Assembly: GCA_041662005.1 (NCBI GenBank)
Contig: JBAZTJ010000028.1
Span: forward strand, 1 to 24,818
DNA: 24,818 bases
Source of the DNA: Candidatus Methylopumilus sp.
Lineage (GTDB): Bacteria > Pseudomonadota > Gammaproteobacteria > Burkholderiales > Methylophilaceae
Reading direction: 5' to 3'
Made by a program: the position numbers and the translations under genes. The notes under the pieces were generated by a model. That model saw only the letters and a program-made list of their open reading frames with translations, was not told where the DNA came from and made no database searches. Position 1 is the stretch's first letter. Each line of letters starts with the position of its first letter. This document shows positions 1,156 to 16,884 of this stretch, one piece after another.

Positions 1156-2447
1156 TGCACGGCCGACTGAATCACCAGATGCAACCCTTGCAAACCGACC
1201 TTGACACTGGGGATAACGACACCCAAGTCGCCTGGCTGCTTGATCGCGTTGCCGGACATGGAGAGCCGGGCTTCGAGCTTCACTTCAGTCGATGCGGACA
1301 GCTTCATGGCAGGACTCATGGCCATGCTGTCATCCAGCTTGAATGGGACTTTATTGCCTGCTAGTAAAGCTTGCGGTGAAGTACGCAACACAGCCAACGG
1401 CATGGGCGGGCCAGCAACCATCTTGGCAAACACGTAAAGCATGGCGCTCTGCGGCACCGGTTTTTGACGCAGTTCGGCCAACAGTTTGGGATCAAGTACG
1501 ACATCACCCTCTATACTTGCTATAGAGGGTGTAACGGTCTCGCTCGCGGCAGGAGTCTGCTCCTGATTGGCAGTAACCGGTGCACCAATTTCAGCCAGAA
1601 TCTCATCGATTCGCGCCACATCTGGTGCATTGGCAGGAAAAGTCGCGCGCAGTTTGCGCCAGTAGTTAGCCGCAGCTATTTTATCCTGCTTCTGCATGGC
1701 CTCGGTGGCGGCAAGCGCCAACCCCTTTTGGTGCTGCGGATCCGCTTTCAACACTTGCGCTATCAGCTCACTTGGTTTGCCCGCCAGGGATTTATTATTC
1801 ACCATGGCCAGCGTGTCAGCCAGATCGGCCATCAAATCGGGGTGGCCTGGCGACAGGCGCAAGGCTTGCTGCAGCGCCTCCGCCTCACCCTTGAAATCAC
1901 GCTGGACTCCACGTGAGCGCGCCAGCAATACCCACTTATCCACATCCTCCGGATTTTCTTTCAGCTTCTGTTCCAGCTTGGCGATGCGCTCTTCCAGCGT
2001 CTCGCTGTCGCCCGGATGTTTTGCGCCATCGGCTGGAGGCGGCTCAGCCGTAACCTCGAGTGTATTGTTTTGTGCTGCCTGGGGCTTCTGCAACGCAAGC
2101 GGGTCTAACCGCCCAATAGACATATAGGTGAAGAGTGCCACCAGCACTACGCTACCCGACAGGCAGGCTACCCAACCCTTCGGCATGGGCTTTGCTTTAT
2201 CTGCACCAGACTGCTCTTGAGCAACCGCAAGTACCTGATCGGCAGTGGTCGCCCACTCGGCTCGCAAAGTTTCTCGGGTAACCTCGGAGATAGTCTGGTC
2301 CTGCTCGATTTCATCACGCTTGATGACTAGGGCTTGCCACTCGGGATCCTGCAAATGCGAGGCGATAGACTTGCGTGACCAGATTTGAAAAATGACGGTA
2401 ACAAAAACTACCAGCAAAGTGAAGGAGACTAAGAGAAAAAATGTCAT
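1152..2447 (-). CDS. ccmI: Cytochrome c-type biogenesis protein CcmI/CycH-like. It has two N-terminal TM helices and a periplasmic TPR domain.
   Basis: 430-aa ORF with an N-terminal TM (FFLLVSFTLLVVFVTVIF) and a second TM (WVACLSGSVVLVALFTYM). TPR-like helical repeats follow (LQQALRLSPGHPDLMADLADTLAM...), and the C-terminal region ends ...SMSGNAIKQPGDLGVV, as in CcmI proteins. Start ATG 2447 is preferred over TTG 2450. Confidence 0.65.
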   Translation of the reverse strand: MTFFLLVSFTLLVVFVTVIFQIWSRKSIASHLQDPEWQALVIKRDEIEQDQTISEVTRETLRAEWATTADQVLAVAQEQSGADKAKPMPKGWVACLSGSVVLVALFTYMSIGRLDPLALQKPQAAQNNTLEVTAEPPPADGAKHPGDSETLEERIAKLEQKLKENPEDVDKWVLLARSRGVQRDFKGEAEALQQALRLSPGHPDLMADLADTLAMVNNKSLAGKPSELIAQVLKADPQHQKGLALAATEAMQKQDKIAAANYWRKLRATFPANAPDVARIDEILAEIGAPVTANQEQTPAASETVTPSIASIEGDVVLDPKLLAELRQKPVPQSAMLYVFAKMVAGPPMPLAVLRTSPQALLAGNKVPFKLDDSMAMSPAMKLSASTEVKLEARLSMSGNAIKQPGDLGVVIPSVKVGLQGLHLVIQSAVQ

Positions 2448-2467
2448 CAAAAGTTCAATAATTTAAG

Positions 2468-2495
2468 TTGGCACTAATATAGCTTTATGTATAAT
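2468..2495 (+). promoter_or_regulatory. Candidate sigma70-type promoter in the AT-rich divergent intergenic region (-35 TTGGCA 2468-2473, 16-nt spacer, -10 TATAAT 2490-2495). It would drive the cytochrome operon.
   Basis: Hexamers read directly from the sequence. The region 2451-2597 is markedly AT-rich relative to flanking genes and lies between divergently oriented ccmI and the 2598 ORF. Confidence 0.3.
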
Positions 2496-2597
2496 AAATG
2501 TCATTACTTGAAACGCGCTTTATATAATAAAAATAAGATTTTAAGTACATGCCTATTTCAACGGGGATCCAGTCTTTTTGGTTAATGATAAAAATAA

Positions 2598-3485
2598 ATG
2601 TATCAAGAAAACGTATTAACCTACAACAACCTCAGATACCTTAAGTGGTCACTGATACTGATTTTGCTCTGTGTCGGCTTTTACATTGCCGAAACGCCCC
2701 CTATCCGCCAGGGAGGCGGCACCTGGCTTGGTTACACATTGGGTACCATAGGCGCAGTCATCATTGTCTGGCTGATGTTTTTCGGGCTCAGGAAGCGCGC
2801 TTATAAATCCAACCTGGGTACCGTGCGTGGCTGGCTTTCCGCCCATATCTACCTTGGCCTGTCGCTCATCGTGATCGCCACCCTGCACGCTGCATTTCAT
2901 TTCGGCTGGAACATACACACGGTTGCTTACATCCTGACCATATCAGTGGTACTTAGCGGGATGTGGGGCGTTGTTATTTACCTCAGGAATCCCATCCTGA
3001 TGAGTAACCTGCTCAATGGCAGGACGCTGGCACAATGTGGCGAAGCCCTGCTTGAGTTTGACGAACAAAGCAGGAAGCTCGCCAAAAGCATGAGCCCGCA
3101 AATACAGAAACTGATTGAGGGCTCGGCTAACGGGCCCATCTTCGCTCACTTCTGGCAACGCTACTTCGGCAAAAACCGCCGTTGCAAGACTGCAAAAGCC
3201 GTCATGCTGCTCACCAAGCACTACTCACAAGCCAAAGTCCAGGAAATATATTCCGATACCGTAGTCCTAAATGCTGCTGAGTTGCATGCGGCGATTGCCA
3301 TGCCGCAAATGCAGGAGGAACTCTACACCTTGCAATTACGGCGCCAGATACAGCTAAACCAGATCCGTGAATACCTGCGCCTGAAAGGCTGGGCCGAAGT
3401 CTGGCTACTGTTTCATGTTCCATTGTCCTTCGGTTTACTGGCTGCGCTCTCCGCGCATATTGTTTCCGTTTTCTTCTACTGGTAA
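2598..3485 (+). CDS. His-rich polytopic inner-membrane protein with about 5 TM helices and a roughly 130-aa soluble loop. It is a possible heme b / quinol-interacting subunit and the first gene of the cytochrome operon.
   Basis: Hydrophobic helices with conserved-looking His residues (SAHIYLGLSLIVIATLHAAFHFGWNIH; LFHVPLSFGLLAALSAHIV). The next gene starts 15 nt downstream. No confident family assignment. Confidence 0.6.
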   Translation: MYQENVLTYNNLRYLKWSLILILLCVGFYIAETPPIRQGGGTWLGYTLGTIGAVIIVWLMFFGLRKRAYKSNLGTVRGWLSAHIYLGLSLIVIATLHAAFHFGWNIHTVAYILTISVVLSGMWGVVIYLRNPILMSNLLNGRTLAQCGEALLEFDEQSRKLAKSMSPQIQKLIEGSANGPIFAHFWQRYFGKNRRCKTAKAVMLLTKHYSQAKVQEIYSDTVVLNAAELHAAIAMPQMQEELYTLQLRRQIQLNQIREYLRLKGWAEVWLLFHVPLSFGLLAALSAHIVSVFFYW

Positions 3486-3500
3486 AGCATCGCTAAGACA

Positions 3501-5156
3501 ATGGCTGAAAAACAAAAAAATGCCCCCTTGATAGAGGAAATCCTCGGCGCGCAAAAGATACGCAAGGGACGGCGTCTGCTGTCGTGGTTTCTTTTCCTGA
3601 CATTGCTGATGGCATGCCTGCTGATTCCTTATGGCGTCTCCATGCACCCTGATGAGGCCGCAACTTTCGTCAAGGAACACCCGTGGGCAGAGCAAACTGT
3701 TAAGCAACTTGCCAAACTGGGTATTACCCCGGCACCCACCAGGAAAATGGATGACGCCAGCATTAACAAAAAGCTGCTCCCATTTACTGCTGATGCGCAA
3801 AACTTTCGCCATACCCGCAGCACCCAACCCGCCTTCCTCAGCCTCGATAAAGTGTGGAACCCGGGACACGAGCTGGATAGTGCCCACAAACCGTGGGCCA
3901 ACGACTGTAAAGTCTGCCACAGCACCCCCTTCGTGCAAGTACAGGACAAAGACTGCCAGAGCTGCCATCGCAATATCGGCGACCACGTAGATCGCAAGAC
4001 AGCGACTGTCAGCGCGCTGGCTGACCAGAAGTGCGCCAGCTGCCACCGCGAACATAACGGCGAAGATAGCCTGGCCAAGCAGAACAAGAGTTACATGACA
4101 GAGAACTGTGCCTCCTGCCACGGCGATATCAAGAAGTCATTCGCAAAAACCAAGACAGGCAATGTCGAGGATTTTGCGACCAAGCATCCTGAGTTCAGGT
4201 ACCAGTTGGCATTGAGCAGCAAACCCAAAGACCTGGAGCGTACCCGCCTGATCAAGGGACAGATGCTCAAGGAAAAAACCGCACTGAAATTCCCGCATGA
4301 CGTTCACCTTAAGGCCGACGGCGTAAAAAGTCCCAAAGGCAAGGTCAAGGTTGAGTGCGCCAGCTGCCACAAACCGAACCCCGATGGCTTGGGCTTCGCT
4401 CAGGTCACCATGAAAGACCACTGCCAGTCATGCCATGACCTCAAGTTCGAACCTGCCGTCTCCAATCGTGAGGTACCGCATGGCTCGGTAGAACTCGTAC
4501 TATCTACCCTGAGGGAGTTCTACAGTTACGTACAGGTCAATGCGGTGCCGATTGATAGCAGTCCGCTGACGGCTCCCATCAACCTGGTACGGCCAGGCAA
4601 GGATTTGCCACGGGTAGCCAGCTTCGTGCACTCCAATGGCAACTCCCGCTCACGGGCTTCCGAGGCGGCAATATCGCTGTTCGAGAAAACCTCCTGCAAA
4701 GTCTGCCATGAGATCAGCCGCGTCAGCGAACCGGGACGCCAAGGCACTAGCGGCCGTGACTTACCACAATGGAAAGTGGCACCGCTAACACCGCGCCACC
4801 CATGGCTGACGCAATCCCAGTTTAACCATGCCAAACACCGCATTGCAGACTGTACGGATTGCCATGCTGCCAACAAATCGAAAAAGGCTGAAGAAGTATT
4901 GATGCCTGCGATCAAGGTTTGTCGCGACTGCCATACCGGCAGCACGCCAGAATCCAACAAACTGGTATCGGATTGCGGCCTGTGTCATGGCTTCCACCTG
5001 CCTGGACACGAAGCCTCCAAAGGCTCAACCAGGCAAGACACCTTAAAAAGCATCATCAAGTCCGCACTTGATAAAACCACCGTGAAACCTGACACCTCAA
5101 CCTCAGGCACCATAAAATCAAGTTCAGCTCAGCTGAATGAAGGAGAAATGCATTGA
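3501..5156 (+). CDS. Decaheme c-type cytochrome built from cytochrome c7/c3-like modules, with an N-terminal membrane anchor or uncleaved signal.
   Basis: 10 CxxCH motifs (CKVCH, CQSCH, CASCH x3, CQSCH, CKVCH, CTDCH, CRDCH, CGLCH). Several have c7-type F-x-H-x-x-H pre-motifs (FPHDVH, FNHAKH). TM segment LLSWFLFLTLLMACLLIPYGV. The stop overlaps the next gene's start. Confidence 0.9.
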   Translation: MAEKQKNAPLIEEILGAQKIRKGRRLLSWFLFLTLLMACLLIPYGVSMHPDEAATFVKEHPWAEQTVKQLAKLGITPAPTRKMDDASINKKLLPFTADAQNFRHTRSTQPAFLSLDKVWNPGHELDSAHKPWANDCKVCHSTPFVQVQDKDCQSCHRNIGDHVDRKTATVSALADQKCASCHREHNGEDSLAKQNKSYMTENCASCHGDIKKSFAKTKTGNVEDFATKHPEFRYQLALSSKPKDLERTRLIKGQMLKEKTALKFPHDVHLKADGVKSPKGKVKVECASCHKPNPDGLGFAQVTMKDHCQSCHDLKFEPAVSNREVPHGSVELVLSTLREFYSYVQVNAVPIDSSPLTAPINLVRPGKDLPRVASFVHSNGNSRSRASEAAISLFEKTSCKVCHEISRVSEPGRQGTSGRDLPQWKVAPLTPRHPWLTQSQFNHAKHRIADCTDCHAANKSKKAEEVLMPAIKVCRDCHTGSTPESNKLVSDCGLCHGFHLPGHEASKGSTRQDTLKSIIKSALDKTTVKPDTSTSGTIKSSSAQLNEGEMH

Positions 5157-7078
5157 GTCCTTTTGTATTGCCTTGCCCACGCGCACTACTCCTCGCCCTG
5201 CTCAGCACTTTGCTGGTCGCTTGCGGCGGTGGAGGCAGCGCTAGCAGTTCATCCTCCAGCAGCGTCAATTGCAGCTTCCCGATAGCCAGCACACCGCAGT
5301 CATTAACTGCGGCTGAAACCGAACGCATTATTGCCCAGGCCGAGCAGGCTGCCATGAGTGTTGGGGCACAGGCAACCATTGCAGTCGTCGACCGCGTTGG
5401 TAACGTATTGGGTGTTTACAACACAGCCGGCAATGCTGCAGCGACTGTCAACCTGCGCAGCGGCAGGGCACTTACCAGCTTTCCACAGGGTCTGGATGGA
5501 TTGGACAACACCATTCCCGCCTCTTTGGCAGCCATTGCCAAAGCCGTTACTGGCGCCTATCTATCCTCCTCTGGCAATGCATTCAGCACACGCACTGCCA
5601 GCTATATCATCCAGGAACATTTTCCACCGACGGTGGATTTCCAGGCTGGCGGTCCGTTGTTTGGTGTGCAGTTCAGCCAGCTGCCTTGTGGTGATTTCGT
5701 TACCCGCGGCATAGGGGCAACCACCGGACCAAAACGCTCGCCTCTTGGGCTTGCCGGCGATCCTGGCGGCTTCCCGATATATAAGAATGGCGTAGTGGTC
5801 GGCGGCATTGGCGTAATGTCTGATGGCGTTTATGGCATTGATTTGAACCCTGTTGCCGGCACTACAGACAGCGATGAAAGAATTGCGCAGTCCGCACTGG
5901 CTGGCTTTCAGGCTCCGGATTGCATACGTGCCAATCGAATTACACTGGGCGGCCAAACCCCGAGTTATAGCAATGCGGATAATGCATTGGTCTCCGTTAG
6001 CTCAACCACAGTGAATGCGGCTAACTTTATCGCAGTGCCAAGCTACTTCACCGCAGGGGCAGCGCTGGCGGGTAGAGCGTATGGCAATGCCGACTCCGGA
6101 TTTACCGCCGATGGCAGCGGAACCCTTGGCGCTGGTGCGTTTGTAGTCACCAACGGTGCGGCCAACCGATTTCCGGCCGTTGCATCCACCACCCCCGCAC
6201 CGGCAACTGGCTTGAGTGTCCCTGAAGTAACACAGATCATCAGCTCAGCCATAGGTGTCGCCAACCAGGCACGTGCACAGATTCGCCGCCCGCTCAACTC
6301 CCCGGCTCAAGTCACCGTTTCGGTAGTTGACCTTGACGGCAATGTATTAGGTGTTGCAAGAACGCCTGACGCGCCTGTCTTTGGGGCTGATGTTTCATTA
6401 CAAAAAGCCCGAACAGCCGCATTCTTCTCAAGCGCTAATGGAGGTGCCACGATCAATGCTCAATCGAACGTGACCTACCTGCTGGCAGGCCCTACTATTA
6501 CTTTAAGCAGTTACGTATCTGCTTCCAACACCTTTGGCAGCACAGGTTTCACCGGAACCACGGCATTCTCTGCGCGAGCCATAGGCAACATTGCACGGCC
6601 GTTTTTCCCCGACGGTATCAACGGGGCACCTAATGGCCCGCTATCAAAGCCAATTAATATATGGAGCCCTTTCAGTACAGGCTTGCAACTCGACCTTGTT
6701 TACAACGCGTTAACCTTTGCAATTCTTAATCCTGCCGATGCAAATGCCGACTGCAGCGCATCGCCGCCAGCAGCAGGAATAGGCCGCATTCAAAATGGTA
6801 TCCAGATATTCCCGGGCGGCGTCCCCATCTACCGCGGCAGCACTTTAATTGGAGCGATCGGCGTCTCTGGCGACGGCGTAGATCAGGATGACATGATTGC
6901 ATTCCTCGGCTTGAGCCGTGCTGGCACTGCGCTTGGTAACGTTATAGGCAATGCCCCATCGGGTATCAGAGCCGACACTCTGAGTATTCCTGGACAAAGT
7001 TCAGGTTTACGTTACGTTAACTGCCCGCAATCGCCCTTTATTAACAGCAATGCCCAGAACGTCTGCGCAGGGATTTAA
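5153..7078 (+). CDS. Lipoprotein with two tandem GlcG/DUF336 (HbpS-like heme-binding) domains and a poly-Ser linker. It is translationally coupled through a TTG start.
   Basis: Lipobox LLVAC-GGGG. Two copies of the DUF336 signature: ATIAVVDRVGNVLGV...GGFPIYKNGVVVGGIGVMSDG and VTVSVVDLDGNVLGV...SLQKARTAAFF...GGVPIYRGSTLIGAIGVSGDGVDQDDMIAFLGL. RBS AGGAG 7 nt upstream of TTG 5153. Confidence 0.85.
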   Translation: MSPFVLPCPRALLLALLSTLLVACGGGGSASSSSSSSVNCSFPIASTPQSLTAAETERIIAQAEQAAMSVGAQATIAVVDRVGNVLGVYNTAGNAAATVNLRSGRALTSFPQGLDGLDNTIPASLAAIAKAVTGAYLSSSGNAFSTRTASYIIQEHFPPTVDFQAGGPLFGVQFSQLPCGDFVTRGIGATTGPKRSPLGLAGDPGGFPIYKNGVVVGGIGVMSDGVYGIDLNPVAGTTDSDERIAQSALAGFQAPDCIRANRITLGGQTPSYSNADNALVSVSSTTVNAANFIAVPSYFTAGAALAGRAYGNADSGFTADGSGTLGAGAFVVTNGAANRFPAVASTTPAPATGLSVPEVTQIISSAIGVANQARAQIRRPLNSPAQVTVSVVDLDGNVLGVARTPDAPVFGADVSLQKARTAAFFSSANGGATINAQSNVTYLLAGPTITLSSYVSASNTFGSTGFTGTTAFSARAIGNIARPFFPDGINGAPNGPLSKPINIWSPFSTGLQLDLVYNALTFAILNPADANADCSASPPAAGIGRIQNGIQIFPGGVPIYRGSTLIGAIGVSGDGVDQDDMIAFLGLSRAGTALGNVIGNAPSGIRADTLSIPGQSSGLRYVNCPQSPFINSNAQNVCAGI

Positions 7079-7080
7079 TC

Positions 7081-9138
7081 GTGAACATACCTAAAAAATA
7101 TCTGCTGACGATTATCAATGCCGCGCTGATGGCATCCCTGGCACAACCGGCGTTTGCAGAGGAGCAGCCAGCAAAGGCCCAACCCGCAGGCATCCAATTA
7201 CAGGTGCTGTCGCCAACGATCAAGGTCTATGCATCCCCGCAGGCCGATGCTCTTTTGCTGTACGAAATCCCCAAAGGCAATTTGCTGGATGTGATCGAGC
7301 AGCAGGGTAACTGGTTCAAGATCAAGGTCAACTCCTACCAGGAGTTTGGCTGGGTGCGTCAGGAGCCCTGGGAGTATGGCGAACTGACGCTTTCGGTGCT
7401 GCCGAATAAAGGCGAGGTGAGTTATGCGCAAGAGCAGGTTGGCGCTACAGCACCTGAGGATGCGCCACAAACCAGGCAGTTTCAACCGGCAAAACCGAAT
7501 GTGATTGCCACATTGCCCCCGATCGACTCAGAACAGGTACCAGCGCCCAGCCCCAACCTGCCTCGCGAAACCATCCCTATCCAGGATCGCTGGCGCATCA
7601 TGCAGGCGCTGGGTTTCAAGTTTCCGTGGTATGACCCGTTTAACCAGAATCACTTGAAGGGCGATTTACCCGTACTTAAGGAATGGGGCGAAGACCTGTT
7701 CTTTAACTTGGGCGTGATCTCCGACACGGTAATCGAGTCCAGAAGAGTGGCGACGCCTGTCGCCAACCAGGTTTCAACTGGGCCTGGGGCTAACAACACT
7801 TACGGCGGTAGCGAGCAATTCATCTTCAACCAGAACCTGATTCTGAGTTTTAGCCTGACCAAGGGCAATACTACATTCAAACCGCCTGAGTATGAATTCA
7901 GGTTTGTGCCGGTGCTGAATTACAACTTTGCCGATGTGAAAGAAGCAGGCGTGTTGAATGCCGACCCCAGAAAAGGCACGACCCGCGAAGATGGCTTTGT
8001 CGGCGTGCAGGAACTGTTTGCCGACGTGCATTTGCGCAATGTGTCGGATCGCTATGACTTCGACAGTATCCGTGTAGGCATACAGCCTTTCATCAGCGAT
8101 TTCAGGGGTTTCCTGTTCCAGGATACGCCGTTCGGTGTGCGTCTATTCGGCAACCGCGCTAACAACCGTTACCAGTACAACGTGGCCTGGTTCCGCCGTA
8201 TGGAAAAAGATACCAACAGCGGCCTCAATGATGTGGGGCAGAGCCTGCGCAACGACGACATTTATGCTGCCAATCTGTATATGCAGGATTTCCCGGCACG
8301 TGGCTTTACTTCGCAAGTCTCGGTTACGCACAACCGTAATAACGAAAAGCAGCGCGAGTACGACACTAACGACTTTCTGGTGCGGCCTGCATTGCTGGGC
8401 GACTTACGCCCGCATTCTTATGAAGTCACCTATCTGGGTTATACCGGTGACGGCCATTTCGGAAAATGGAGCCTCTCCACATCCAGCTACCTGGCCGTTG
8501 GTAGCGATTCACGCAGCCCGATAGCGCAAACCAAACAGGATATTTTTGCGGGTTTCCATGCCTCCGAGTTGGCGCGCGACTTCGACTGGATACGTTTGCG
8601 AGGCAACCTGTTATTAGCCTCCGGTGACAAGAATCCTTACGATGACAAATCTACCGGCTTTGACGCTATTCTGGAAAACCCGCAGTTTGCCGGCGCATCC
8701 ACCAGCTATTACATACGTCAGAGCATCCCCCTCATTGGTGGCGGTGGCGTTGGACTATCAGGACGTAACGGTTTGCTGCCCTCTTTGCGGTCTTCGCCCA
8801 TCCAGGGACAATCCAATTTCGCCAACCCTGGCCTGGTGCTATTAGGGCTTGGCGCCGACTTTGACCTGGGCCCGCAGCTCCGCGTGTTTGGCAATATCTC
8901 CGACCTGCATTTCATGAACACCTCTTCGCTAGGCGTGTTGCGCAACGAGGAAATCCCGTCGAAACATCTTGGTGTAGATGCTTCGGTAGGCTTCCACTGG
9001 CGGCCCTTGTTTAACCAGAACATTATCATCAACGGTTCGATGGGCGCTTTAATGCCGGGTGATGGTCTGAAGCAGTTATACGGTAATGACCAGAGCACTT
9101 TGTATTCCGCATTAATCAATGCCTTGATTACTTACTAA
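7081..9138 (+). CDS. Outer-membrane beta-barrel protein with an N-terminal SH3b-like domain. It is a candidate porin/sheath partner for the adjacent cytochromes.
   Basis: GTG start with AGGGA RBS. Signal peptide ...ASLAQPAFA-EE. SH3b-like IQLQVLSPTIKVYASPQADALLLYEIPKGNLLDVIEQQGNWFKIKV. About 520 aa of alternating hydrophobic/beta-rich sequence, ending in an aromatic residue (…ALITY). Confidence 0.75.
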   Translation: MNIPKKYLLTIINAALMASLAQPAFAEEQPAKAQPAGIQLQVLSPTIKVYASPQADALLLYEIPKGNLLDVIEQQGNWFKIKVNSYQEFGWVRQEPWEYGELTLSVLPNKGEVSYAQEQVGATAPEDAPQTRQFQPAKPNVIATLPPIDSEQVPAPSPNLPRETIPIQDRWRIMQALGFKFPWYDPFNQNHLKGDLPVLKEWGEDLFFNLGVISDTVIESRRVATPVANQVSTGPGANNTYGGSEQFIFNQNLILSFSLTKGNTTFKPPEYEFRFVPVLNYNFADVKEAGVLNADPRKGTTREDGFVGVQELFADVHLRNVSDRYDFDSIRVGIQPFISDFRGFLFQDTPFGVRLFGNRANNRYQYNVAWFRRMEKDTNSGLNDVGQSLRNDDIYAANLYMQDFPARGFTSQVSVTHNRNNEKQREYDTNDFLVRPALLGDLRPHSYEVTYLGYTGDGHFGKWSLSTSSYLAVGSDSRSPIAQTKQDIFAGFHASELARDFDWIRLRGNLLLASGDKNPYDDKSTGFDAILENPQFAGASTSYYIRQSIPLIGGGGVGLSGRNGLLPSLRSSPIQGQSNFANPGLVLLGLGADFDLGPQLRVFGNISDLHFMNTSSLGVLRNEEIPSKHLGVDASVGFHWRPLFNQNIIINGSMGALMPGDGLKQLYGNDQSTLYSALINALITY

Positions 9139-9196: not shown

Positions 9197-12100
9197 ATGA
9201 GAAGTATGCTTTTTAATCACTCTTTAAAGTCTAGCGTTTATCGTGCCGGTTCGATTGTTGCGCTTGCGTTCCTGGTCCTGTTGCCCATCAACGGGATTTC
9301 ATCGGAGGAGCATCTAACGCATCGCGATTACACGGTAGCGCCTGATGCGCCAAAAACGCAGACGGAAGCAGCTGCTAAAGAGAAATCTGACGGCTGCATG
9401 AGTTGCCATAGCGCGACAGACAGACACACCATGCACGCCAACCCTGGCGTCATTATTGGCTGTACCGACTGTCATGGCGGCAATGCTGCCGTGGCTGTTA
9501 ATAAACATGTCAGTGAGGGTGACCACAAAGCTGCAGAGTATCGCGAAGCCATGGAAAAAGCCCACGTGTTGCCGCGTGATGAGAAATTGTGGAGCTCCTC
9601 GGCAAACCCCCAGGTTTCCTATGCCAGGCTCAACAAAGAGCACCCAGCCTTTATCCGCTTTATCAACCCTGGCGACTTGCGCATAGCACGCCAAGCCTGC
9701 GGCAGCTGCCATTTGCCTATCATCCAGGCACAAGAACGCAGCCTGATGTCGACATCTGCCATGCTGTGGGGCGGTGCCGCCTACAACAACGGCATACTGC
9801 CTTACAAGCGATATATCATCGGTGAGGCATACACCCATGATAGTGAGCCGGCGGCGCTTGTTAACCCGATCAAGCCAGACAATGATTTATTCATGTTCAA
9901 AGGCATACTGGACAGGCTCTACCCATTGCCTGCCTGGGAAACCATTCCCCCCGCCGATATTTTTCGGGTGTTCGAACGGGGCGGCCGCGTCATCAACAGC
10001 ACCTTCCCCGAAGTTGGTTTGCCTAACAGCTCCGGCACGCTGCAAAAACTGGATGAACCGGGTCGTCCCGATATCAAGCAATCCAACCGCGGGCCGGGCA
10101 CCGGCAGCAACATCGCCGTGCCTGTTATCAATATCACCAAAACCCGTTTGAATGACCCGCACCTGTGGTTTCTCGGCACTAATGAGCAAGCGGGCGATTA
10201 CCGCTCATCCGGCTGTAGCGGCTGCCATAGCATCTATGCCAATGACCGTGACCCTTTGCACTCAGGCCCTTATGCCAAGTTTGGCAACAGTGGCAGCACG
10301 CAGACCATAGACCCCACGATTCCCAAAGACGAATCCGGCCACCCGCTCAAGCATGAATTTACGCGCGCCATTCCATCCTCACAGTGCATGGTCTGCCATA
10401 TGCACCAGCCCAATATTTTCGTGAATTCGTTCTATGGCTACACCATGTGGGATTACGAATCCGATGCGCCCAGTATGTGGCCGGAAAAACAGACATACCC
10501 TACCGATGCCGAGATACGCGCCATCAACGAGCGCAACCCTGAGGAAGCAGCCATCCGCGGTAAGTGGAGCGACCCGGATTTCCTGAAAAATGTCTCCACC
10601 CTCAACCCCACGCTCAAAGACACGCAATTTGCCGACTATCACGGGCACGGCTGGAACTTCCGCGCGATTTTCAAGCGCAACCGCAAGGGCGCACTGCTGG
10701 ATGCCAAGGGTAATATCGTCGATGACAATGATCCCAAGAAATTCAGCAAAGCCGTACACCTCAGCTCTATCCACATGGATATCGGCATGCAGTGCGTGGA
10801 CTGCCACTTCGCGCAGGACATGCACGGCAATGGCCATATCTATGGTGAAGTAGCGGCGGCGATTGAGGTCGACTGTTCCGACTGCCACGGCACCGCGACC
10901 ACCTACCCTACCCTGCACACCTCCGGCCCGGCCGCACGCCCGGGTGGCTTGGACCTGACCACCCTCACCACGCAGGATGGACGTCGCCGCTTTGAATGGA
11001 TAGATGGCAAACTGATCCAGCGCTCAGCCATTGACCCCAACAAAGAATGGGAAATGTCGCTGGTGAAAGATACCGTCAACCCCAACCACCCAAAATACAA
11101 TGCCAAGGCGGCACGTGCCAAGTTGATGGGCGCCGGCGAAGAAGGACAACAAGGGCAATGGGGGCTGGGAGTCAAAAAGCTCGCGCATGACAACAGCAAG
11201 ATGACCTGCTTTACCTGCCATTTATCATGGACCACCAGCTGCGCCGGTTGTCATTTGCCGATACAGGCCAACTGGAAAACAGAGCGTCACCATTATGAAG
11301 GCGGCGAGACCAGAAATTACGCCACCTACAACCCGCAAGTAGCGCGCGATGAAATGTTCCAGCTCGGCCTGAGCGGACCGGTGAAAGGGTCCAAGGTCAC
11401 CCCTGTGCGCTCCAGTTCGGCGCTGATCCTGTCCTCGACCAACAGCAATCGCGAGCGGATTTATATCCAGCAGCCGCCTATCGCTGCCAGTGGTTTCTCA
11501 TCGCAGGCTTTTGCCCCGCACTACCCGCATACCGAGCGCAAGGAAGAAACCAAGACCTGCACCGACTGCCATGTCTCCAAAGACAATGACAACAACGCCA
11601 TCATGGCGCAGCTGCTGCTACAGGGCACCAACTTCGTCAATTTTGTCGGCTTCAACGCATGGCTGGGCGAAGCGCATCATGTCGAAGCAGTCACCGTGAC
11701 CGAGTGGGACGAGCCCCAGGCGGTGATCGGCAGTTATCTGCAACGCTACGCTTACCCGGATTACTTCAAGGCGCATCAGGATCGCAAGCTGGAGCTGCCT
11801 GAAGCCTTTGATCATGGCGCCGCCGATAATGTTAACTGCCTGCAGATGCGCGGCGAGTATCTTTACGCGGCCGAAGGCAAAGGCGGTTTCCGCGTTTACG
11901 ATATTGCCAATATTGGTAATAAGGGTGTAGCCCAGCGCATCATCACCGCACCATTTTCATCGATAGGCCAGGACACGCACGTAGCCAGCAAAAATGCCAC
12001 CTGCATGGCATTGCCCACCAATCAGTCGATTGCACCCTCCAGGAATCCGGATGAAAGCAAGGACAAAGCACGCTTTGAGCTGATGCGTAAAACTAATCAG

Positions 12101-13039
12101 GAGCAGGCCTTCCACCCCATCTACCACTACGCCTTCATCACCGATGCCGTAGAGGGACTGATTGCCGTGGATGTGGACACGCTGGCGGATGGCGAACCCC
12201 GCAACAACTTCCTCAAGCGCGCTGTCACCTGGAACCCGGATGGCCTGCTCAACAATGCGCGCCACATTACCCTGGGCGGGCATTACGCCTATGTCGCCAC
12301 TCCCAAGGGCATGGTGATTCTGGACCTGGATAATCCGCTCAAGCCTAAACACATCAAGACCATCGCGCTGGATGATGTCAGAGGCTCAGCAGTGCAGTTC
12401 CGCTACCTGTTTGTAACCGACCCCAGCGGGTTGCGGGTGGTGGATATTACCAAGCCGAAAGAGCCTGTTTTGTTACCGGCACAGATTCCACTGGCCAATG
12501 CACAAAAACTCTATCTCGCCAGAACCTATGCCTACGTAGCAGCGGCCGAGCAAGGCCTGGCTATCATTGATATCGAGAAGCCGGAAAGCCCTGTCGTTTA
12601 TCAGATGTACACCGCGGACGGCAAACTCAATGACGCACGTGATGTGGTTGTAGGCACCACTAACGCCTCACTATTTGCCTATGTGGCTGACGGTAAAAAT
12701 GGCCTGAAAGTCGTACAATTGACAGCACCGGATACGCAACCGCGCTTCTACGGTTTTTCACCGGACCCCAAGCCCAACCTAATTGCCTGGCGCAATACCC
12801 AGTCAGCAGCGCTGGCAGTTTCCAAGGGGCTGGACCGTGACCGCGCAGTAGATGAAACCGGGCACCAGATCGCCGTATTCGGGCGCATCGGGTCACGGCC
12901 ATTCAACCGCAGTGAGATGGATAAGCTCTATATGCGCCCGGATGGCAATATATGGACAGTCAGTGACAAACCTAACGATAAAGACATGATTCCTAAAAAA
13001 TCAGCCAAGCCAGCGCCCTCGCAGGAGCAGATTCGATAA
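9197..13039 (+). CDS. Large secreted decaheme c-type cytochrome fused to a C-terminal LVIVD-repeat beta-propeller.
   Basis: Signal peptide. 10 CxxCH motifs spread over about 790 aa (CMSCH, CTDCH, CGSCH, CSGCH, CMVCH, CVDCH, CSDCH, CFTCH, CAGCH, CTDCH). The C-terminal ~480 aa carry at least 6 LVIVD-type repeats (GGFRVYDIANIG, GLIAVDVDTLADG, GMVILDLDNPLKP, GLRVVDITKPKEP, GLAIIDIEKPESP, GLKVVQLTAPDT). Confidence 0.9.
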   Translation: MRSMLFNHSLKSSVYRAGSIVALAFLVLLPINGISSEEHLTHRDYTVAPDAPKTQTEAAAKEKSDGCMSCHSATDRHTMHANPGVIIGCTDCHGGNAAVAVNKHVSEGDHKAAEYREAMEKAHVLPRDEKLWSSSANPQVSYARLNKEHPAFIRFINPGDLRIARQACGSCHLPIIQAQERSLMSTSAMLWGGAAYNNGILPYKRYIIGEAYTHDSEPAALVNPIKPDNDLFMFKGILDRLYPLPAWETIPPADIFRVFERGGRVINSTFPEVGLPNSSGTLQKLDEPGRPDIKQSNRGPGTGSNIAVPVINITKTRLNDPHLWFLGTNEQAGDYRSSGCSGCHSIYANDRDPLHSGPYAKFGNSGSTQTIDPTIPKDESGHPLKHEFTRAIPSSQCMVCHMHQPNIFVNSFYGYTMWDYESDAPSMWPEKQTYPTDAEIRAINERNPEEAAIRGKWSDPDFLKNVSTLNPTLKDTQFADYHGHGWNFRAIFKRNRKGALLDAKGNIVDDNDPKKFSKAVHLSSIHMDIGMQCVDCHFAQDMHGNGHIYGEVAAAIEVDCSDCHGTATTYPTLHTSGPAARPGGLDLTTLTTQDGRRRFEWIDGKLIQRSAIDPNKEWEMSLVKDTVNPNHPKYNAKAARAKLMGAGEEGQQGQWGLGVKKLAHDNSKMTCFTCHLSWTTSCAGCHLPIQANWKTERHHYEGGETRNYATYNPQVARDEMFQLGLSGPVKGSKVTPVRSSSALILSSTNSNRERIYIQQPPIAASGFSSQAFAPHYPHTERKEETKTCTDCHVSKDNDNNAIMAQLLLQGTNFVNFVGFNAWLGEAHHVEAVTVTEWDEPQAVIGSYLQRYAYPDYFKAHQDRKLELPEAFDHGAADNVNCLQMRGEYLYAAEGKGGFRVYDIANIGNKGVAQRIITAPFSSIGQDTHVASKNATCMALPTNQSIAPSRNPDESKDKARFELMRKTNQEQAFHPIYHYAFITDAVEGLIAVDVDTLADGEPRNNFLKRAVTWNPDGLLNNARHITLGGHYAYVATPKGMVILDLDNPLKPKHIKTIALDDVRGSAVQFRYLFVTDPSGLRVVDITKPKEPVLLPAQIPLANAQKLYLARTYAYVAAAEQGLAIIDIEKPESPVVYQMYTADGKLNDARDVVVGTTNASLFAYVADGKNGLKVVQLTAPDTQPRFYGFSPDPKPNLIAWRNTQSAALAVSKGLDRDRAVDETGHQIAVFGRIGSRPFNRSEMDKLYMRPDGNIWTVSDKPNDKDMIPKKSAKPAPSQEQIR

Positions 13040-14382
13040 TGAAAACACTACAGAGACTCAGCATAAAACTATGGCTGGCCACTAGCCTACTTTTGAGTCT
13101 GGCCACCAGCGCCCATGCCACCATGCCCAACCTGTCGCATGACCAGACAGTGGGTTCGGTAAATTGTGCGAACAGCTTTTGCCACGGCTCGATAACGCAT
13201 TGGGATGAATCCAATGTGCTGCAGAATGAATACACCACCTGGGAGCGTCTGGACCGGCATACCCAAACCTACCAGGTATTGCTCAACAAGCAATCCAAGC
13301 TGATCGCCAAAAACCTGGGCCTGAAAAAACCTGCCCATGAGTCCAAAGTCTGCCTGGATTGCCATGCGCATAACCCGGCTGCGGATCAACGCGGCGAACG
13401 TTTCATCATGAGCGAAGGCGTGGGCTGCGAGGGTTGCCATGGCCCGGCCGGACGCTGGATCAAGTCGCACACGCTGGCGGGCGCCAGCCATGCCGACAAC
13501 ATTGAAAACGGACTTTACCCGACTGACTCGCCTGTAGCGCAGGCCAAGCTTTGCCTGTCTTGCCATTTTGGCGACCAGAACCGCTTTATCACCCACCGCA
13601 TCATGGGGGCCGGGCATCCACGCATCTCTTTTGAACTGGAGACCTTTACTGCCATCCAGCCCGCCCACTTCCGTATCGATGATGATTGGCACAAACGTAA
13701 AGGGGATTACAACCCGATCAAGGTCTGGGCCATTGGCCAGGTCATCGCCTCACAGCAGTTGCTGAATGCGTTTGCCGACCCTAAGCTGGGACGGGACGGC
13801 ATCTTCCCCGAACTGGTATTGTTTGATTGCCATGCCTGCCACCACCCCATGAGCGAGAAAAAATGGACACCGCGCCTGGGCGTTGGCCCTGGCCGTATCC
13901 GCCTGAATGACAGCAACCTGCTGATGCTACGTGCCATTGTGCGAGTGGTCGATGCCAGCAATGCAGCAGAATTTAACAAGCGCATCATGCAGATGCACCA
14001 GGCAGTTTCTGGTAATGGCGACCCTACCGGCATCAGCCCGACCGAGTCTGCGCAAAAGGTAGCGGCATCGCTGGAAACCTACGTTACGCTGATCAAAAAC
14101 CAGAGCTTCAACCTGCCGCAGCTCAAGCAGGTGTATCAGGCTTTGATTGATGAAGCGATTGATGGCCAGTTCTCGGATTATGCTGGCGCTGAGCAAGCCT
14201 ATATGGCCATCTCCAACCTGTCGCTGTCATTGGCAAAAATGGGCGGATTGAAGTCAGCGCCAGAGGTGAATCGCCAGTTGGCAAACATGCGTAAAACGCT
14301 CACCAATGACGAAACGTACCAACCCAAAGTATTTGCCAAACAATTGGCTGATTTGAAATATACCGTATCGCAAGCGAGGTAA
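13039..14382 (+). CDS. Periplasmic pentaheme c-type cytochrome (c554/NrfB-like motifs) with a heme-free helical C-terminal domain. Its start overlaps the upstream stop (TAATG).
   Basis: Signal peptide ...ATSAHA. 4 CxxCH motifs (CLDCH, CEGCH in GVGCEGCHGPAG, CLSCH, CHACHH) plus one CX4CH (CANSFCH). RBS GGAG upstream. Confidence 0.85.
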   Translation: MKTLQRLSIKLWLATSLLLSLATSAHATMPNLSHDQTVGSVNCANSFCHGSITHWDESNVLQNEYTTWERLDRHTQTYQVLLNKQSKLIAKNLGLKKPAHESKVCLDCHAHNPAADQRGERFIMSEGVGCEGCHGPAGRWIKSHTLAGASHADNIENGLYPTDSPVAQAKLCLSCHFGDQNRFITHRIMGAGHPRISFELETFTAIQPAHFRIDDDWHKRKGDYNPIKVWAIGQVIASQQLLNAFADPKLGRDGIFPELVLFDCHACHHPMSEKKWTPRLGVGPGRIRLNDSNLLMLRAIVRVVDASNAAEFNKRIMQMHQAVSGNGDPTGISPTESAQKVAASLETYVTLIKNQSFNLPQLKQVYQALIDEAIDGQFSDYAGAEQAYMAISNLSLSLAKMGGLKSAPEVNRQLANMRKTLTNDETYQPKVFAKQLADLKYTVSQAR

Positions 14383-14385
14383 GCC

Positions 14386-16884
14386 ATGAGTCAGCCCAAT
14401 ATCAATCCGAGCAAAAGTAGCCATGCAGACATGCTGTTTGCCGAGGCGGAAGCGCAATACGACATTATTATCGTAGGCTCAGGCCCGGCAGGGCTTTCCG
14501 CCGCGGCACATGCCAAGGCATTGGGCGCCAGCCATCTACTGCTGGAAGCAGAAAGCCACACGGCAGATACCATCTACAAATATCAGAAACGTAAACACGT
14601 GATGGCTGAGCCCGGCATCATCCCATTACGCTCAGACCTCAAGTTTGCTGAGGGCCTGCGCGAGACAGTCCTGCAAAACTGGGATGATGGAATCACAGGC
14701 CTTGGTGTCAATATTGAGTATGGCAAGCGTGTTAATTTCCTGCAACGCGACGAAGCCAGCCGCACCTTTACTATCAAGTGCGAGGACGGGAGCGAATATA
14801 CCTCACGCACCGTTGTTCTCGGCATTGGCCTGCAAGGCAACCTGCGCAAACTGGGTGTGCCAGGTGAACATGCGCAGAGCGTGCAATACACCCTATCCGA
14901 CCCAGATGAATTCAAGGGTGAAACCATCATCGTGATTGGCGCTGGTGATGCCGGGATTGAAAATGCACTCGCCTTGATGGGACAGAACACCGTTTACATC
15001 CTTAACCGCCAAACCGAATTTGCGCAGTGCAAAGAAGGCAACCGCAATTTAATTACCAAAGCGGAAAAGTCAGGCAGTATCAACGTACGCTACAGCGCCA
15101 ACACGGTGCGTATTGATGAGGCCGACCGCAGCACCAACAAAGATTTACCACCGTATATTTTCGTTTTCAACGACAAAGACGGTGAAGCTGCCGTGCCTTG
15201 CCATCGGGTAATTGCACGTCTGGGTGCTACAGCCCCGCGCAAGCAGGTGGAAAGCTTCGGCATCAAATTCCCGAATGACAACCCGGCATCTGTGCCGGTG
15301 CTGTCAGAGCGCTACGAGTCCAATGTGCCCGGCTTGTTCATCGTCGGTGCGCTGGGTGGTTACCCACTGATCAAGCAGGCCATGAACCAGGGTTACGAGG
15401 TAGTGGAAACCATCCTTGGTCGTGAAATCGAGCCTGTCGATGAACCACTATTAAAAAATAAAATCCGGCCATGGCGGCCATTATCGACCGTCTCGGAAGC
15501 GCTGGACTTCATACTCCACGGAGTACCGCTGTTCCAGGCCATGTCCAAGCTGCAACTGCGCGAATTCATGCTGGACTCGACCATACTGACGCCACGTAAA
15601 GGCTCGGTTGTCTTTAAAAAGCTGGACTATACCAACACTTTCTTCTCCATTGTGGAAGGCGATGTAGAAGTCGAGATTGAAGACAAGGATGGCAAGAAAA
15701 AACGGATCAAGCTGCCCACAGGCTCCTTCTTTGGTGAAATGGGGCTGATTTCCGGTCGACGCCGCACCGCTACCGTATTTGCCGGCGAACGCTGCGTGCT
15801 GCTGGAAACCCCCCGTAATACCATGCTGCGCCTCATTGCCGCAGTGGATGATGTGCGTCGCCAGATTGATGAATCTTTCCTGCGCAATGCGATTTACAAC
15901 TACATTGGCCCCATGCTGAGCCGTGAAGCCGTGGATGCGCTGGTCAACAGCGGGGTAGAAAAACGCAAATACCAGGCTAACCAGGTGCTGTTCAGTGAGG
16001 GCGATGATGCTGATGGTTTGTATCTGGTGCGTAGTGGCTCGCTGACCGTATCCAAAGTCATCGATAACCAGGAAAAAATCCTGTCCTACGTTTCTGCCGG
16101 CAATTACGTCGGAGAAATGGCACTGGTCAACAACTCCAAACGCACCGCCACAGTAAAAGCTGCCGTGTATACCGAGGTTTTGGTACTCAAGGCCGATGCC
16201 TTCAAGCAACAGCTTGCCCTCAATCCCGCATGGCGCCAGGCTATCGAAAGCGTGATGGCGGAACGTACCCGTGCCAACGTAATGGCCACCGAAAAAACCG
16301 GCCAGGAAAGCGACTTGATACGCTTCATGCTCAAGCAAGGCCTGGGCGAGGCTTCTGATGTACTCATCATCAACGAGTCCATGTGCATCCAATGCAATAA
16401 CTGTGAAACCGCGTGTGCCGAAACGCACAAAGGTACCTCACGCCTGAAACGGGAGGCTGGCCCTTCTTTTGCCAACTTCCACCTGCCCGTAGCTTGCCGC
16501 CATTGCGAAAATCCCAGCTGCATGAAGGATTGCCCACCGGATGCGATTACCCGCTCCAAGGAAGGCGAAGTGTTCATCAGCGATGCTTGTATAGGTTGCG
16601 GCAATTGTGAGCGTAATTGCCCTTATGGCGTGATCCAGATGGCTGTACAAAAACCGCCGAAAATGGGTGCCAACATGCTCTGGCTGTTATTTGGCCTAGG
16701 CGCAGCCCCTGGTGAGAGGCAGCCGGATTATGACCCGAATGCCGCCAAAAAAGCCGTCAAATGTGACCTGTGCTCCGGCCAGAGTGGTGGCCCGGCATGC
16801 GTGCGGGCATGCCCTACCGGTGCCGCCATACGCACATCGCCGGAAAAAATCTTTAAACCCATCAGCATGGGCTTTGATGAATAA
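14386..16884 (+). CDS. Multidomain redox protein: a TrxR-like FAD/NAD(P)-binding oxidoreductase lacking the CxxC, two cyclic-nucleotide-binding domains, and two 2x[4Fe-4S] ferredoxin domains. Predicted soluble.
   Basis: GxGxxG (VGSGPAGLSAAAHA) and a second Rossmann motif (VIGAGDAGIE). cNMP-binding signatures FFGEMGLISGRRRTATVFA and YVGEMALVNNSKRTATVKA. Cys clusters CIQCNNCETAC / CRHCENPSC..DCP / CIGCGNCERNCP / CDLCSG...CVRACP. Strong RBS GAGGTAA. Confidence 0.9.
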   Translation: MSQPNINPSKSSHADMLFAEAEAQYDIIIVGSGPAGLSAAAHAKALGASHLLLEAESHTADTIYKYQKRKHVMAEPGIIPLRSDLKFAEGLRETVLQNWDDGITGLGVNIEYGKRVNFLQRDEASRTFTIKCEDGSEYTSRTVVLGIGLQGNLRKLGVPGEHAQSVQYTLSDPDEFKGETIIVIGAGDAGIENALALMGQNTVYILNRQTEFAQCKEGNRNLITKAEKSGSINVRYSANTVRIDEADRSTNKDLPPYIFVFNDKDGEAAVPCHRVIARLGATAPRKQVESFGIKFPNDNPASVPVLSERYESNVPGLFIVGALGGYPLIKQAMNQGYEVVETILGREIEPVDEPLLKNKIRPWRPLSTVSEALDFILHGVPLFQAMSKLQLREFMLDSTILTPRKGSVVFKKLDYTNTFFSIVEGDVEVEIEDKDGKKKRIKLPTGSFFGEMGLISGRRRTATVFAGERCVLLETPRNTMLRLIAAVDDVRRQIDESFLRNAIYNYIGPMLSREAVDALVNSGVEKRKYQANQVLFSEGDDADGLYLVRSGSLTVSKVIDNQEKILSYVSAGNYVGEMALVNNSKRTATVKAAVYTEVLVLKADAFKQQLALNPAWRQAIESVMAERTRANVMATEKTGQESDLIRFMLKQGLGEASDVLIINESMCIQCNNCETACAETHKGTSRLKREAGPSFANFHLPVACRHCENPSCMKDCPPDAITRSKEGEVFISDACIGCGNCERNCPYGVIQMAVQKPPKMGANMLWLLFGLGAAPGERQPDYDPNAAKKAVKCDLCSGQSGGPACVRACPTGAAIRTSPEKIFKPISMGFDE

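Follow-up and report, generated by a model that had tools for sequence, protein, structure and literature searches.

A decaheme cytochrome fused to an LVIVD beta-propeller and its conserved gene cluster in Candidatus Methylopumilus sp. and other bacteria

A stretch of DNA from Candidatus Methylopumilus sp. (24,818 nt; positions 1 to 24,818 of contig JBAZTJ010000028.1, assembly GCA_041662005.1; hereafter the window) carries a gene at nt 9197–13039 that encodes a secreted ten-heme c-type cytochrome joined to a C-terminal LVIVD beta-propeller. The gene lies in an operon that recurs across several bacterial phyla and, on balance, we favour the view that its product is the terminal and most constrained redox subunit of a widespread, unnamed electron-transfer system that is porin-cytochrome-like and spans the cell envelope. 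While the architecture of the protein, the constancy of this architecture, its distribution and its genomic partners are firmly established, we infer its function, location and substrate, and the direction of electron flow. In the literature on multiheme cytochromes and conduits no paper describing this family was found, and neither the peat 'EET1-4' preprint nor the MHCscan survey mentions a propeller or LVIVD protein.

The cytochrome-propeller fusion

The features of the gene and its product are listed below (positions are those of the window; aa, amino acid positions in the protein; pLDDT, predicted local distance difference test score of the second structure model described below).

9197..13039, + strand: gene for the secreted decaheme c-type cytochrome with C-terminal LVIVD beta-propeller (the fusion protein); ATG start, 1280 aa
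9197..9301 (aa 1–35), + strand: putative Sec-type signal peptide, recognised by sequence inspection; hydrophobic core at aa ~16–32, no lipobox
9302..11641 (aa 36–815), + strand: heme domain with ten CxxCH motifs
9395–9409, 9461–9475, 9698–9712, 10214–10228 and 10385–10399, + strand: CxxCH motifs of hemes 1–5
10793–10807, 10874–10888, 11207–11221, 11240–11254 and 11558–11572, + strand: CxxCH motifs of hemes 6–10
9971..10102 (aa 259–302), + strand: loop FERGGRV...EPGRPDIKQSNRGPGTG; pLDDT <50 at model residues 224–267
11249..11521 (aa ~685–775), + strand: predicted seven-stranded beta domain between hemes 9 and 10; strands assigned by DSSP at model residues 650–739, pLDDT ~85–95
11648..12886 (aa ~818–1230), + strand: predicted beta-propeller of six LVIVD blades and a putative composite closing blade

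The protein has ten CxxCH motifs and no others (at aa 67, 89, 168, 340, 397, 533, 560, 671, 682 and 788), spanning aa 67–792, and 20 of its 22 cysteines lie inside them. When the protein was shuffled 20,000 times, never more than two such motifs arose, against the ten of the real sequence, and by its motif content the protein would be classed as a multiheme c-type cytochrome. Covalent attachment of the hemes has indirect support in a cytochrome c maturation (ccm) operon nearby and in 12 conserved histidines that are candidate distal ligands (see below). A search of the protein for CxxCK motifs found none. There is an N-terminal hydrophobic segment at aa 13–37, and the sequence, which has ~128 aa per heme, is not of low complexity. 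The C-terminal part matches the Pfam LVIVD repeat (PF08309) with 69.3 bits (E = 1.7e-19; cut-off, 20.2 bits), as do 16 of 16 divergent family members. Between aa ~885 and ~1176 the sequence shows six blades with the pattern (Y/F)AYVA...GLxhhDh. These results bear out a preliminary description of the window, made from its letters and reading frames alone, which had proposed a 1280-aa decaheme cytochrome fused to roughly six LVIVD-type blades.

The same description had pointed out that the fusion might be an assembly artefact, for example a frameshift joining two genes. An error of this kind in assembly or annotation, or a propeller that is no more than a degenerate tail unable to fold, can be given practically no weight. 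The frame is uninterrupted through the open reading frame (ORF), and a 98%-identical protein (P0001) is present on eight contigs that were read, two of which come from different sequencing runs and carry the same neighbouring genes. The full-length cytochrome-propeller architecture was found at 82 of 82 genomic loci and in about 240 full-length proteins, from independent assemblies, and the junction (aa 800–870) is conserved among the homologues. Nothing speaks for an artefact beyond four entries that look like cytochrome-only relatives (P0172, P0180, P0198 and P0135), and these were rejected as such because they are themselves frameshifted, with long out-of-frame stretches rich in Arg, Pro and Ala. 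No intact family member without the propeller was present among the homologues seen, which also answers the earlier question of whether the propeller is always fused. The cytochrome-propeller fusion is genuine.

Relatives of the protein are numerous and widely distributed. The 120 best in the database are 1205–1357 aa in length and cover 95–100% of the query at 71–98% identity; named sources among them are Janthinobacterium, Duganella, Undibacterium, Limnobacter and Moraxellaceae, and their annotations go no further than hypothetical, 'LVIVD repeat-containing' or 'multiheme c-type cytochrome'. In a scan of one genome per species, relatives were detected in at least 596 species. The best 80 of these (tblastn) belong to the Beta-, Gamma- and Alphaproteobacteria and the Acidobacteriota, with identities of 61–76%, and their matches begin within the first ~60 residues and finish at aa 1257 or later. 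Metagenomic protein clusters with full-length relatives number in the thousands, and a profile of divergent members retrieved full-length relatives (mostly 1100–1340 aa) from Planctomycetes, Acidobacteria, KSB1, Nitrospirota, Wallbacteria and Xenobia. All ten heme motifs are kept at 81 of the 82 genomic loci and in 114 of 121 distant homologues.

Some variation occurs around this common plan. The attachment site of heme 3 (nt 9698–9712 in the window) varies within the family, being CxxCH in Proteobacteria and most others and CX4CH (e.g. CGTAGCH) in 26 of 114 distant homologues. A metagenomic homologue of 1648 aa (P0132) carries 18 extra, densely spaced CxxCH motifs at its N-terminus, giving 28 hemes in total, and a protein of 1702 aa (P0136) has large non-heme insertions. 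Judged from such sequences, the ten-heme/propeller core appears to tolerate N-terminal wire extensions.

Predicted structure

A first structure model was based on a shallow alignment, in which all sequences were >70% identical, and only its C-terminal third was good; the heme domain had a pLDDT <50 and was unusable. The second model covered aa 36–1235 and was built from an alignment of 143 sequences (41–92% identity), including ~114 added distant homologues. It gave a mean pLDDT of 90.3 and a predicted template modelling score (pTM) of 0.90, a value which, over 1200 residues, implies that the heme domain and the propeller would form a single rigid body with a fixed interface.

In this model the heme domain is mostly helical (pLDDT >85). 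The sole part predicted to be disordered is the loop at aa 259–302, in which many positions are invariant in close relatives (alignments A1/A2), while in distant phyla the loop is shorter or variable. Speculatively, it may contact a partner specific to proteobacteria, for which the HbpS-like lipoprotein and the SH3 domain described below would be candidates. The loop belongs to a ~170-aa non-heme insert that separates hemes 3 and 4. This insert, together with the beta domain between hemes 9 and 10, accounts for much of the wide spacing of the hemes, which had at first been likened to that of catalytic enzymes and does not by itself carry that meaning; MtrC and OmcA, which are decahemes of the cell surface that function in electron transfer, are of similar heme density.

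After heme 10 (C788) the model has a short helix and a long hairpin (aa ~820–833), followed by the propeller, which extends to aa ~1228. That the C-terminal repeats fold as a closed beta-propeller, as first suggested from the repeats, is predicted with high confidence. Propellers filled the lists of the fold searches made with the model, the best matches being seven-bladed, and the model can be read as seven-bladed also, with the six LVIVD blades completed by a closing blade that would be made up of the hairpin and the C-terminal strands. Heme 10 lies ~28 residues before the hairpin assigned to this closing blade, and because of this short tether and the high pTM, it is likely to be closely apposed to the propeller. 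An earlier suggestion that a heme might lie at the propeller interface is plausible to that extent. Among the structural neighbours of the propeller are a surface lipoprotein complexed with a Bacteroides B12 TonB-dependent transporter, a chain of the BAM complex and S-layer YVTN propellers, and also cytochrome cd1 NirS and NirN.

The gene cluster

The gene for the fusion protein belongs to a tightly packed operon on the + strand, with overlaps of 1–4 nt at 5153–5156 and 13039. Its other members, and the divergently transcribed ccm gene next to them, are as follows (TM, transmembrane; FeS, iron-sulfur; cNMP, cyclic nucleotide monophosphate).

1152..2450, – strand: CcmH/CycH gene for cytochrome c maturation, at the head of the divergently transcribed ccm operon
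2598..3485, + strand: inner-membrane protein, 295 aa, putative di-heme-b electron carrier of PCC3/PCC4 type; two WX3HX13H motifs and SGxxG
3501..5156, + strand: membrane-anchored decaheme cytochrome of c7/c3 type, 551 aa; ten CxxCH, Cytochrome_C7 E = 6e-16, TM segment 24–49
5153..7078, + strand: HbpS-like lipoprotein, lipobox LVAC; two or more HbpS/GlcG-like (DUF336) domains, with two stretches matching the Pfam HbpS-like model (E = 3.2e-20)
7081..9138, + strand: putative outer-membrane protein, 685 aa; signal peptide, SH3_3 (E = 5.6e-6) and Pro-rich linker, then a putative beta-barrel of ~500 aa with the C-terminus ...LITY
13039..14382, + strand: periplasmic c554-like cytochrome, 447 aa; four CxxCH and one CX4CH (CANSFCH, aa 43)
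14386..16884, + strand: cytoplasmic flavin/FeS protein, 832 aa; TrxR/FNR-type FAD-NAD(P)H, two cNMP-binding and HycB-like poly-[4Fe-4S] ferredoxin domains (Pfam)

In the inner-membrane protein the motifs are WLSAH-X13-H (aa 79), WLLFH-X13-H (aa 269) and SGMWG (aa 120), and two or more HX13H motifs are present in 54 of 55 homologues. No quinone-reactive family scored above threshold against it (cytochrome b561/Ni_hydr_CYTB, 18.9 bits vs a cut-off of 30.1). The anchored decaheme has ten hemes at 56 of 59 loci. The HbpS-like lipoprotein matched, among PDB sequences, proteins of EfgA/GlcG type and a putative extracellular heme-binding protein (4nkp). The outer-membrane protein has no TM helix and a C-terminal Tyr, and none of the curated families searched matches the core of the window protein; we infer that this core of ~500 aa is a beta-barrel.

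The stop codon of the fusion gene overlaps the ATG of the c554-like gene by 1 nt (13039), which suggests translational coupling. The 4+1 heme pattern of the c554-like cytochrome is kept at 49 of 52 loci, so the protein is probably pentaheme. The 832-aa flavin/FeS protein has no signal peptide or TM segment, and its matches among PDB sequences are ferredoxin-NADP reductases of TrxR type and HycB polyferredoxins.

On the other side of the cluster, the CcmH neighbour recurs at many betaproteobacterial loci, which suggests that the ccm operon is a maturation system dedicated to the cluster. At the closest relative of the window (locus L001, nt 1–3250) the CcmH/CycH-type TPR gene is followed by a gene with CcmA-type ABC and CcmB matches and then by CcmC. 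Promoter and terminator scans gave sites no commoner than chance expectation, with one plausible exception (TTGGCA-16-TATAAT, nt 2468–2495), and no FNR/CRP or Fur boxes were found at the mismatch levels allowed.

Conservation of the cluster

Nearly all of 80 other loci, which belong to Alpha-, Beta- and Gammaproteobacteria and to Acidobacteriota, carry the genes for the inner-membrane protein, the decaheme, the HbpS-like lipoprotein, the outer-membrane protein and the fusion protein in this order. The flavin/FeS gene is found downstream in Betaproteobacteria and upstream of the inner-membrane protein gene in Alpha- and Gammaproteobacteria, and the c554-like gene, downstream as well in Betaproteobacteria, stands at one end of the cluster or the other. 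Directly upstream of the fusion gene is the outer-membrane protein gene, in 75 of 79 loci.

Three loci from distant phyla (Planctomycetes, Acidobacteria and a third) have a gene for a protein of ~530–560 aa without Pfam matches in this same upstream position. In the Acidobacteria metagenome-assembled genome, the upstream protein (~528 aa) is homologous to the window outer-membrane protein (29% identity, E = 4e-57), and the locus also carries a homologue of the window inner-membrane protein (E = 1e-8). At two of the three, the fusion gene is followed by genes for a multiheme cytochrome, a cNMP+Fer4 protein, a protein of ~285 aa, a second multiheme cytochrome and an FHA+FAD/NAD protein; the flavin/FeS protein is split in distant phyla, into the cNMP+Fer4 and FHA+FAD/NAD proteins. 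The gene for the HbpS-like lipoprotein, syntenic in the proteobacterial loci, is absent at the three distant loci examined. The SH3_3 domain and Pro-rich linker (aa ~100–183; nt 7081–7630 in the window) are missing from the Acidobacteria homologue of the outer-membrane protein, and the two other distant genes in this position are similarly short. The lipoprotein and the SH3 domain both give the impression of having been added in Proteobacteria, and the lipoprotein and the SH3/linker region may have been acquired together.

The fusion protein is the most conserved member of the cluster, with 60–76% identity across proteobacterial classes and 41–50% across phyla. Its median identity is 65.6%; the medians of the other members are 54.1% (outer-membrane protein), 52.9% (flavin/FeS protein), 49.4% (HbpS-like lipoprotein), 48.5% (c554-like cytochrome), 38.5% (inner-membrane protein) and 34.6% (anchored decaheme).

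Heme ligation and comparison with enzymes

Twelve histidines outside the heme motifs (80, 123, 382, 386, 403, 482, 521, 526, 543, 664, 699 and 778) are at least 90% conserved in the divergent set, as are three methionines. This number of histidines is sufficient for bis-His ligation of all ten hemes, and the pattern would fit a wire in which every heme is bis-His ligated. In the propeller (aa 818–1230), no His or Cys reaches 90% conservation among the 143 sequences; conservation there falls on Gly, Asp, Asn, Arg, Glu and Pro, together with one Tyr (Y1070), and the propeller is conserved as strongly as the heme domain.

The main alternative, which we regard as possible, although rather unlikely, is that the protein is a periplasmic multiheme enzyme that reduces or oxidises a small N-, S-, Se- or O-species, with the propeller forming part of an active-site pocket or substrate tunnel and the outer-membrane protein serving as a channel for substrate or product. 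Cytochrome cd1 nitrite reductase, hydrazine synthase and the quinohemoprotein dehydrogenases are precedents, and in all of these (including cd1 NirS/NirN) a c-heme module is fused to a beta-propeller, as in the fusion protein. Such a role would suit the rank of the gene as the most conserved of the cluster, and a propeller that equals the heme domain in conservation. It would also suit the conserved histidines, which exceed the distal ligands needed by two, and the family hints for the outer-membrane protein, which point to channels and porins only. However, the c-hemes of these enzymes number one or two, and a catalytic cofactor (heme d1, pyrroloquinoline quinone or a special heme) is bound in or on the propeller, which is eight-bladed or six/seven-bladed, through conserved ligands. 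The fusion protein differs from them in its ten hemes, in the LVIVD type of its propeller and in having no conserved propeller His or Cys that could bind a metal or cofactor.

Similarity to nitrite reductases was found at the level of profiles. Neither the protein alone nor a shallow profile found a relative among PDB sequences, and the only matches of a deeper profile were borderline ones to NrfA and octaheme nitrite reductases (E = 0.012–0.03), which, like the presence of NirS and NirN among the propeller neighbours, count in favour of an enzyme. This family shares with the fusion protein two di-heme patterns, C..CH..IE.MH...C..CH at hemes 1–2 and IH..G..C.DCH...G.LY...C..CH at hemes 6–7, but the similarity is below significance, and the fusion protein has neither the CxxCK motif of the catalytic heme nor any other known catalytic heme signature. 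In hhalign comparisons E. coli NrfA reached 79% probability and the control, the electron-transfer pentaheme NrfB, 93%, and the catalytic heme 1 of NrfA had no counterpart in the alignment. Since NrfB aligns better than NrfA, the likeness is one of multiheme cytochromes in general, and a specific relationship to NrfA was rejected.

An enzyme is further opposed by the three multiheme cytochromes of the cluster, which with ~25 hemes in total provide more wire than a periplasmic enzyme normally requires. The catalytic reading in the preliminary description is not supported in the form argued there, given the absence of CxxCK, the 12 conserved histidines and a propeller with no conserved His or Cys.

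Comparison with known electron conduits

The cluster has several points in common with MtrCAB, namely an outer-membrane protein, a decaheme that faces the periplasm and a second decaheme of low heme density with non-heme beta domains, giving 10 + 10 hemes. At the level of families the resemblance is slight. The fusion protein did not match the OmcA/MtrC models (TIGR03507, PF22113) or DmsE/MtrA, and the anchored decaheme (nt 3501–5156) scored 28.6 bits against a cut-off of 192.2 for DmsE/MtrA (TIGR03508) and 16.8 against 209.3 for OmcA/MtrC. Weak matches to the MtrC/MtrF domain II/IV model (PF22113) were found in four of 16 divergent homologues of the fusion protein (best E = 3.7e-10). Unlike MtrCAB, the fusion protein is without a lipoprotein signal and carries a beta-propeller, which is found in no Mtr protein. 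The outer-membrane protein of the cluster has an SH3 domain and a core of only ~500 aa, while the MtrB barrel has ~700 aa. In place of a quinol dehydrogenase of CymA type, the link at the inner membrane would be formed by a putative b-heme protein and an NAD(P)H/FeS protein.

Large multiheme cytochromes clustered with a porin-like protein and a b-type cytochrome also occur in the Geobacter extHIJKLMNOPQS genes. The ExtM model (NCBIfam NF040943) gave 57.4 bits with the fusion protein (E = 8e-16), far below the equivalog cut-off of 800; the match is local and is best over aa 523–573, around hemes 6–7. ExtM differs in having 12 hemes, a mass of 68 kDa and no propeller, and the Ext cluster in having a Rieske/cytochrome b pair and a rhodanese-like protein. 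LVIVD- and YVTN-type propellers known from the cell surface, i.e. an archaeal S-layer protein (1L0Q) and those of Bacteroides (8BN0; 8BMX chain D), have no redox cofactors and no fusion to a cytochrome, unlike the protein described here.

A closer parallel is found in the inner-membrane protein. The corresponding protein of the PCC3 and PCC4 clusters has ~300 aa, two WX3HX13H motifs and SGxxG, and has been likened to di-heme-b ferric-reductase/NOX domains (He et al. 2017, PMC5566968); the window protein matches this signature exactly. Also PCC4-like are the presumed porin gene, the several multiheme cytochromes and an Fe-S redox protein (PF13247-type) whose gene adjoins that of the inner-membrane protein. 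The cytochromes are different. Those of PCC3 are heme-dense, low-complexity wires with a median of 21–34 hemes and ~26–30 aa per heme, and the three periplasmic cytochromes described for PCC4 carry 4, 5 and 10 hemes, without a propeller (PMC5566968). In the present cluster there are 10, 10 and 4+1 hemes, an LVIVD propeller and an HbpS-like lipoprotein, PCC4 being compared by its description only. Assignment of the cluster to PCC3 or PCC4 by its cytochrome complement was rejected, as the heme counts differ.

In Gallionella capsiferriformans ES-2 and relatives, a three-gene module without a porin has been listed (PMC5566968, Supplementary Table 6), consisting of a nine-heme cytochrome of 544–556 aa, an inner-membrane protein of 308–310 aa with two HX13H motifs and a redox protein of 796–805 aa. 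This looks like the inner half of the window cluster and, if so, the outer-membrane protein and the propeller cytochrome would form an outer module that can be separated from it. A cytochrome-propeller fusion, an HbpS-like lipoprotein and a flavin/FeS partner with putative cNMP gating are all absent from the conduits described so far.

Proposed function and direction of electron flow

In the system that we favour, electrons would pass between the cytoplasmic NAD(P)H/FeS protein and the periplasm through the b-heme inner-membrane protein, and from there by way of the anchored decaheme and the pentaheme to hemes 1–10 of the fusion protein, which would sit at or in the outer-membrane protein. Heme 10 would abut the propeller, and this in turn would dock on the outer-membrane barrel and/or bind the terminal redox partner. 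The cNMP domains of the flavin/FeS protein would gate the flow. The N-terminal fusion of 18 hemes in P0132 and the position of heme 10 suggest that the N-terminus is the input end of the protein and the propeller its output end. By analogy to other surface propellers on outer-membrane barrels, the propeller could dock on the barrel, and a propeller that docks in this way onto the outer-membrane protein of the cluster is as good a reading as the substrate- or mineral-binding platform first suggested.

Points in favour of this proposal are the near-constant gene order, the return of a comparable functional set at the loci of distant phyla, the PCC3/PCC4 signature of the inner-membrane protein, the reductase and polyferredoxin matches of the flavin/FeS protein, histidines sufficient for a bis-His wire, the presence of barrel-docking propellers among the structural neighbours and the adjacent ccm operon. 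Several observations weigh against it. Homologues of the outer-membrane protein gave weak matches only, in some of them, to the porin families Alginate_exp and DESULF_POR1, and AlgE is an 18-stranded barrel, which would be too narrow for a cytochrome. A lipobox-like pattern was matched in 12 of 120 close homologues of the fusion protein and is not present in the window protein; confined to a minority, it is uninformative on surface anchoring. Conservation of the protein is unusually high for one that is exposed at the surface, and would suit an enzyme for small substrates at least equally. Lastly, the hosts are mostly aerobic heterotrophs that are not known for extracellular electron transfer. 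Common aerobic and facultative heterotrophs among them are Oxalobacteraceae, Limnobacter, relatives of Xanthomonadales, Rhodospirillales, Acidobacteriota and Planctomycetes.

Outward (reductive) flow is the more likely direction, as the cytoplasmic module is an oxidoreductase of NAD(P)H type, and candidate acceptors would be Fe(III), Mn(IV), humic substances, O2 or an oxyanion. Flow in the opposite direction would have the protein oxidise an extracellular or periplasmic donor, for example Fe(II), Mn(II), reduced humics or a cathode-like mineral, and deliver the electrons to the inner membrane; a role of this kind has been proposed for PCC3/PCC4 in iron oxidisers, and here we think it improbable. 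This type of inner-membrane protein first came to notice in gene clusters of neutrophilic bacteria that oxidise Fe(II), the related module occurs in Gallionella (PMC5566968), and porin-cytochrome conduits are able to run both ways (PMC10734462), all of which would be in keeping with inward flow. On the other hand, electrons from Fe(II) or Mn(II) would have to be driven uphill to reduce NAD(P)+, and the cluster shows no component for energy coupling; the hosts are mostly heterotrophs; and the inner-membrane protein has no match above threshold to a quinone-reactive family.

A more specific version of the outward scheme can be offered tentatively. The fusion protein may be the working end of an NAD(P)H-fed, cyclic-nucleotide-gated system across the envelope, in which the propeller, wired by heme 10, is a new active or binding site and the whole reduces Fe(III), Mn(IV), humics or O2 (giving superoxide) outside the cell or at the outer membrane. 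Such a system would be a bacterial counterpart of the NOX/FRE-type oxidoreductases, extended over two membranes.

If a system of the favoured kind is present, many ordinary heterotrophs of fresh water, soil and the sea that are not deemed electroactive carry a conserved electron route across the whole envelope, with a terminal protein unlike any that has been characterised. This bears on the enzymes behind extracellular reduction of metals and humics in oxic-anoxic transition zones, and on those behind the production of extracellular reactive oxygen by heterotrophs. With its ten-heme wire in rigid connection to a propeller, the protein would represent a new module that links multiheme chains to a binding or catalytic surface. 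The gene would be a defined and highly conserved marker, and several hosts (Janthinobacterium, Duganella, Limnobacter) are cultivable and genetically tractable.

Other features of the window

Two diguanylate cyclase genes follow the cluster, one of response-regulator-GGDEF type (nt 16923–18680) and the other of 7TMR-DISM-GGDEF type (nt 18767–20404). Both are conserved in the closest relative (L001) only and not at other loci, so that any regulatory tie to the cluster would be a local one. The G+C content of the window is about 53%. Near its end, on the – strand, is an ORF (nt 24228–24710) that ends ...GIAAGLRNTG and which we take to resemble the C-terminal part of phosphoenolpyruvate carboxylase.

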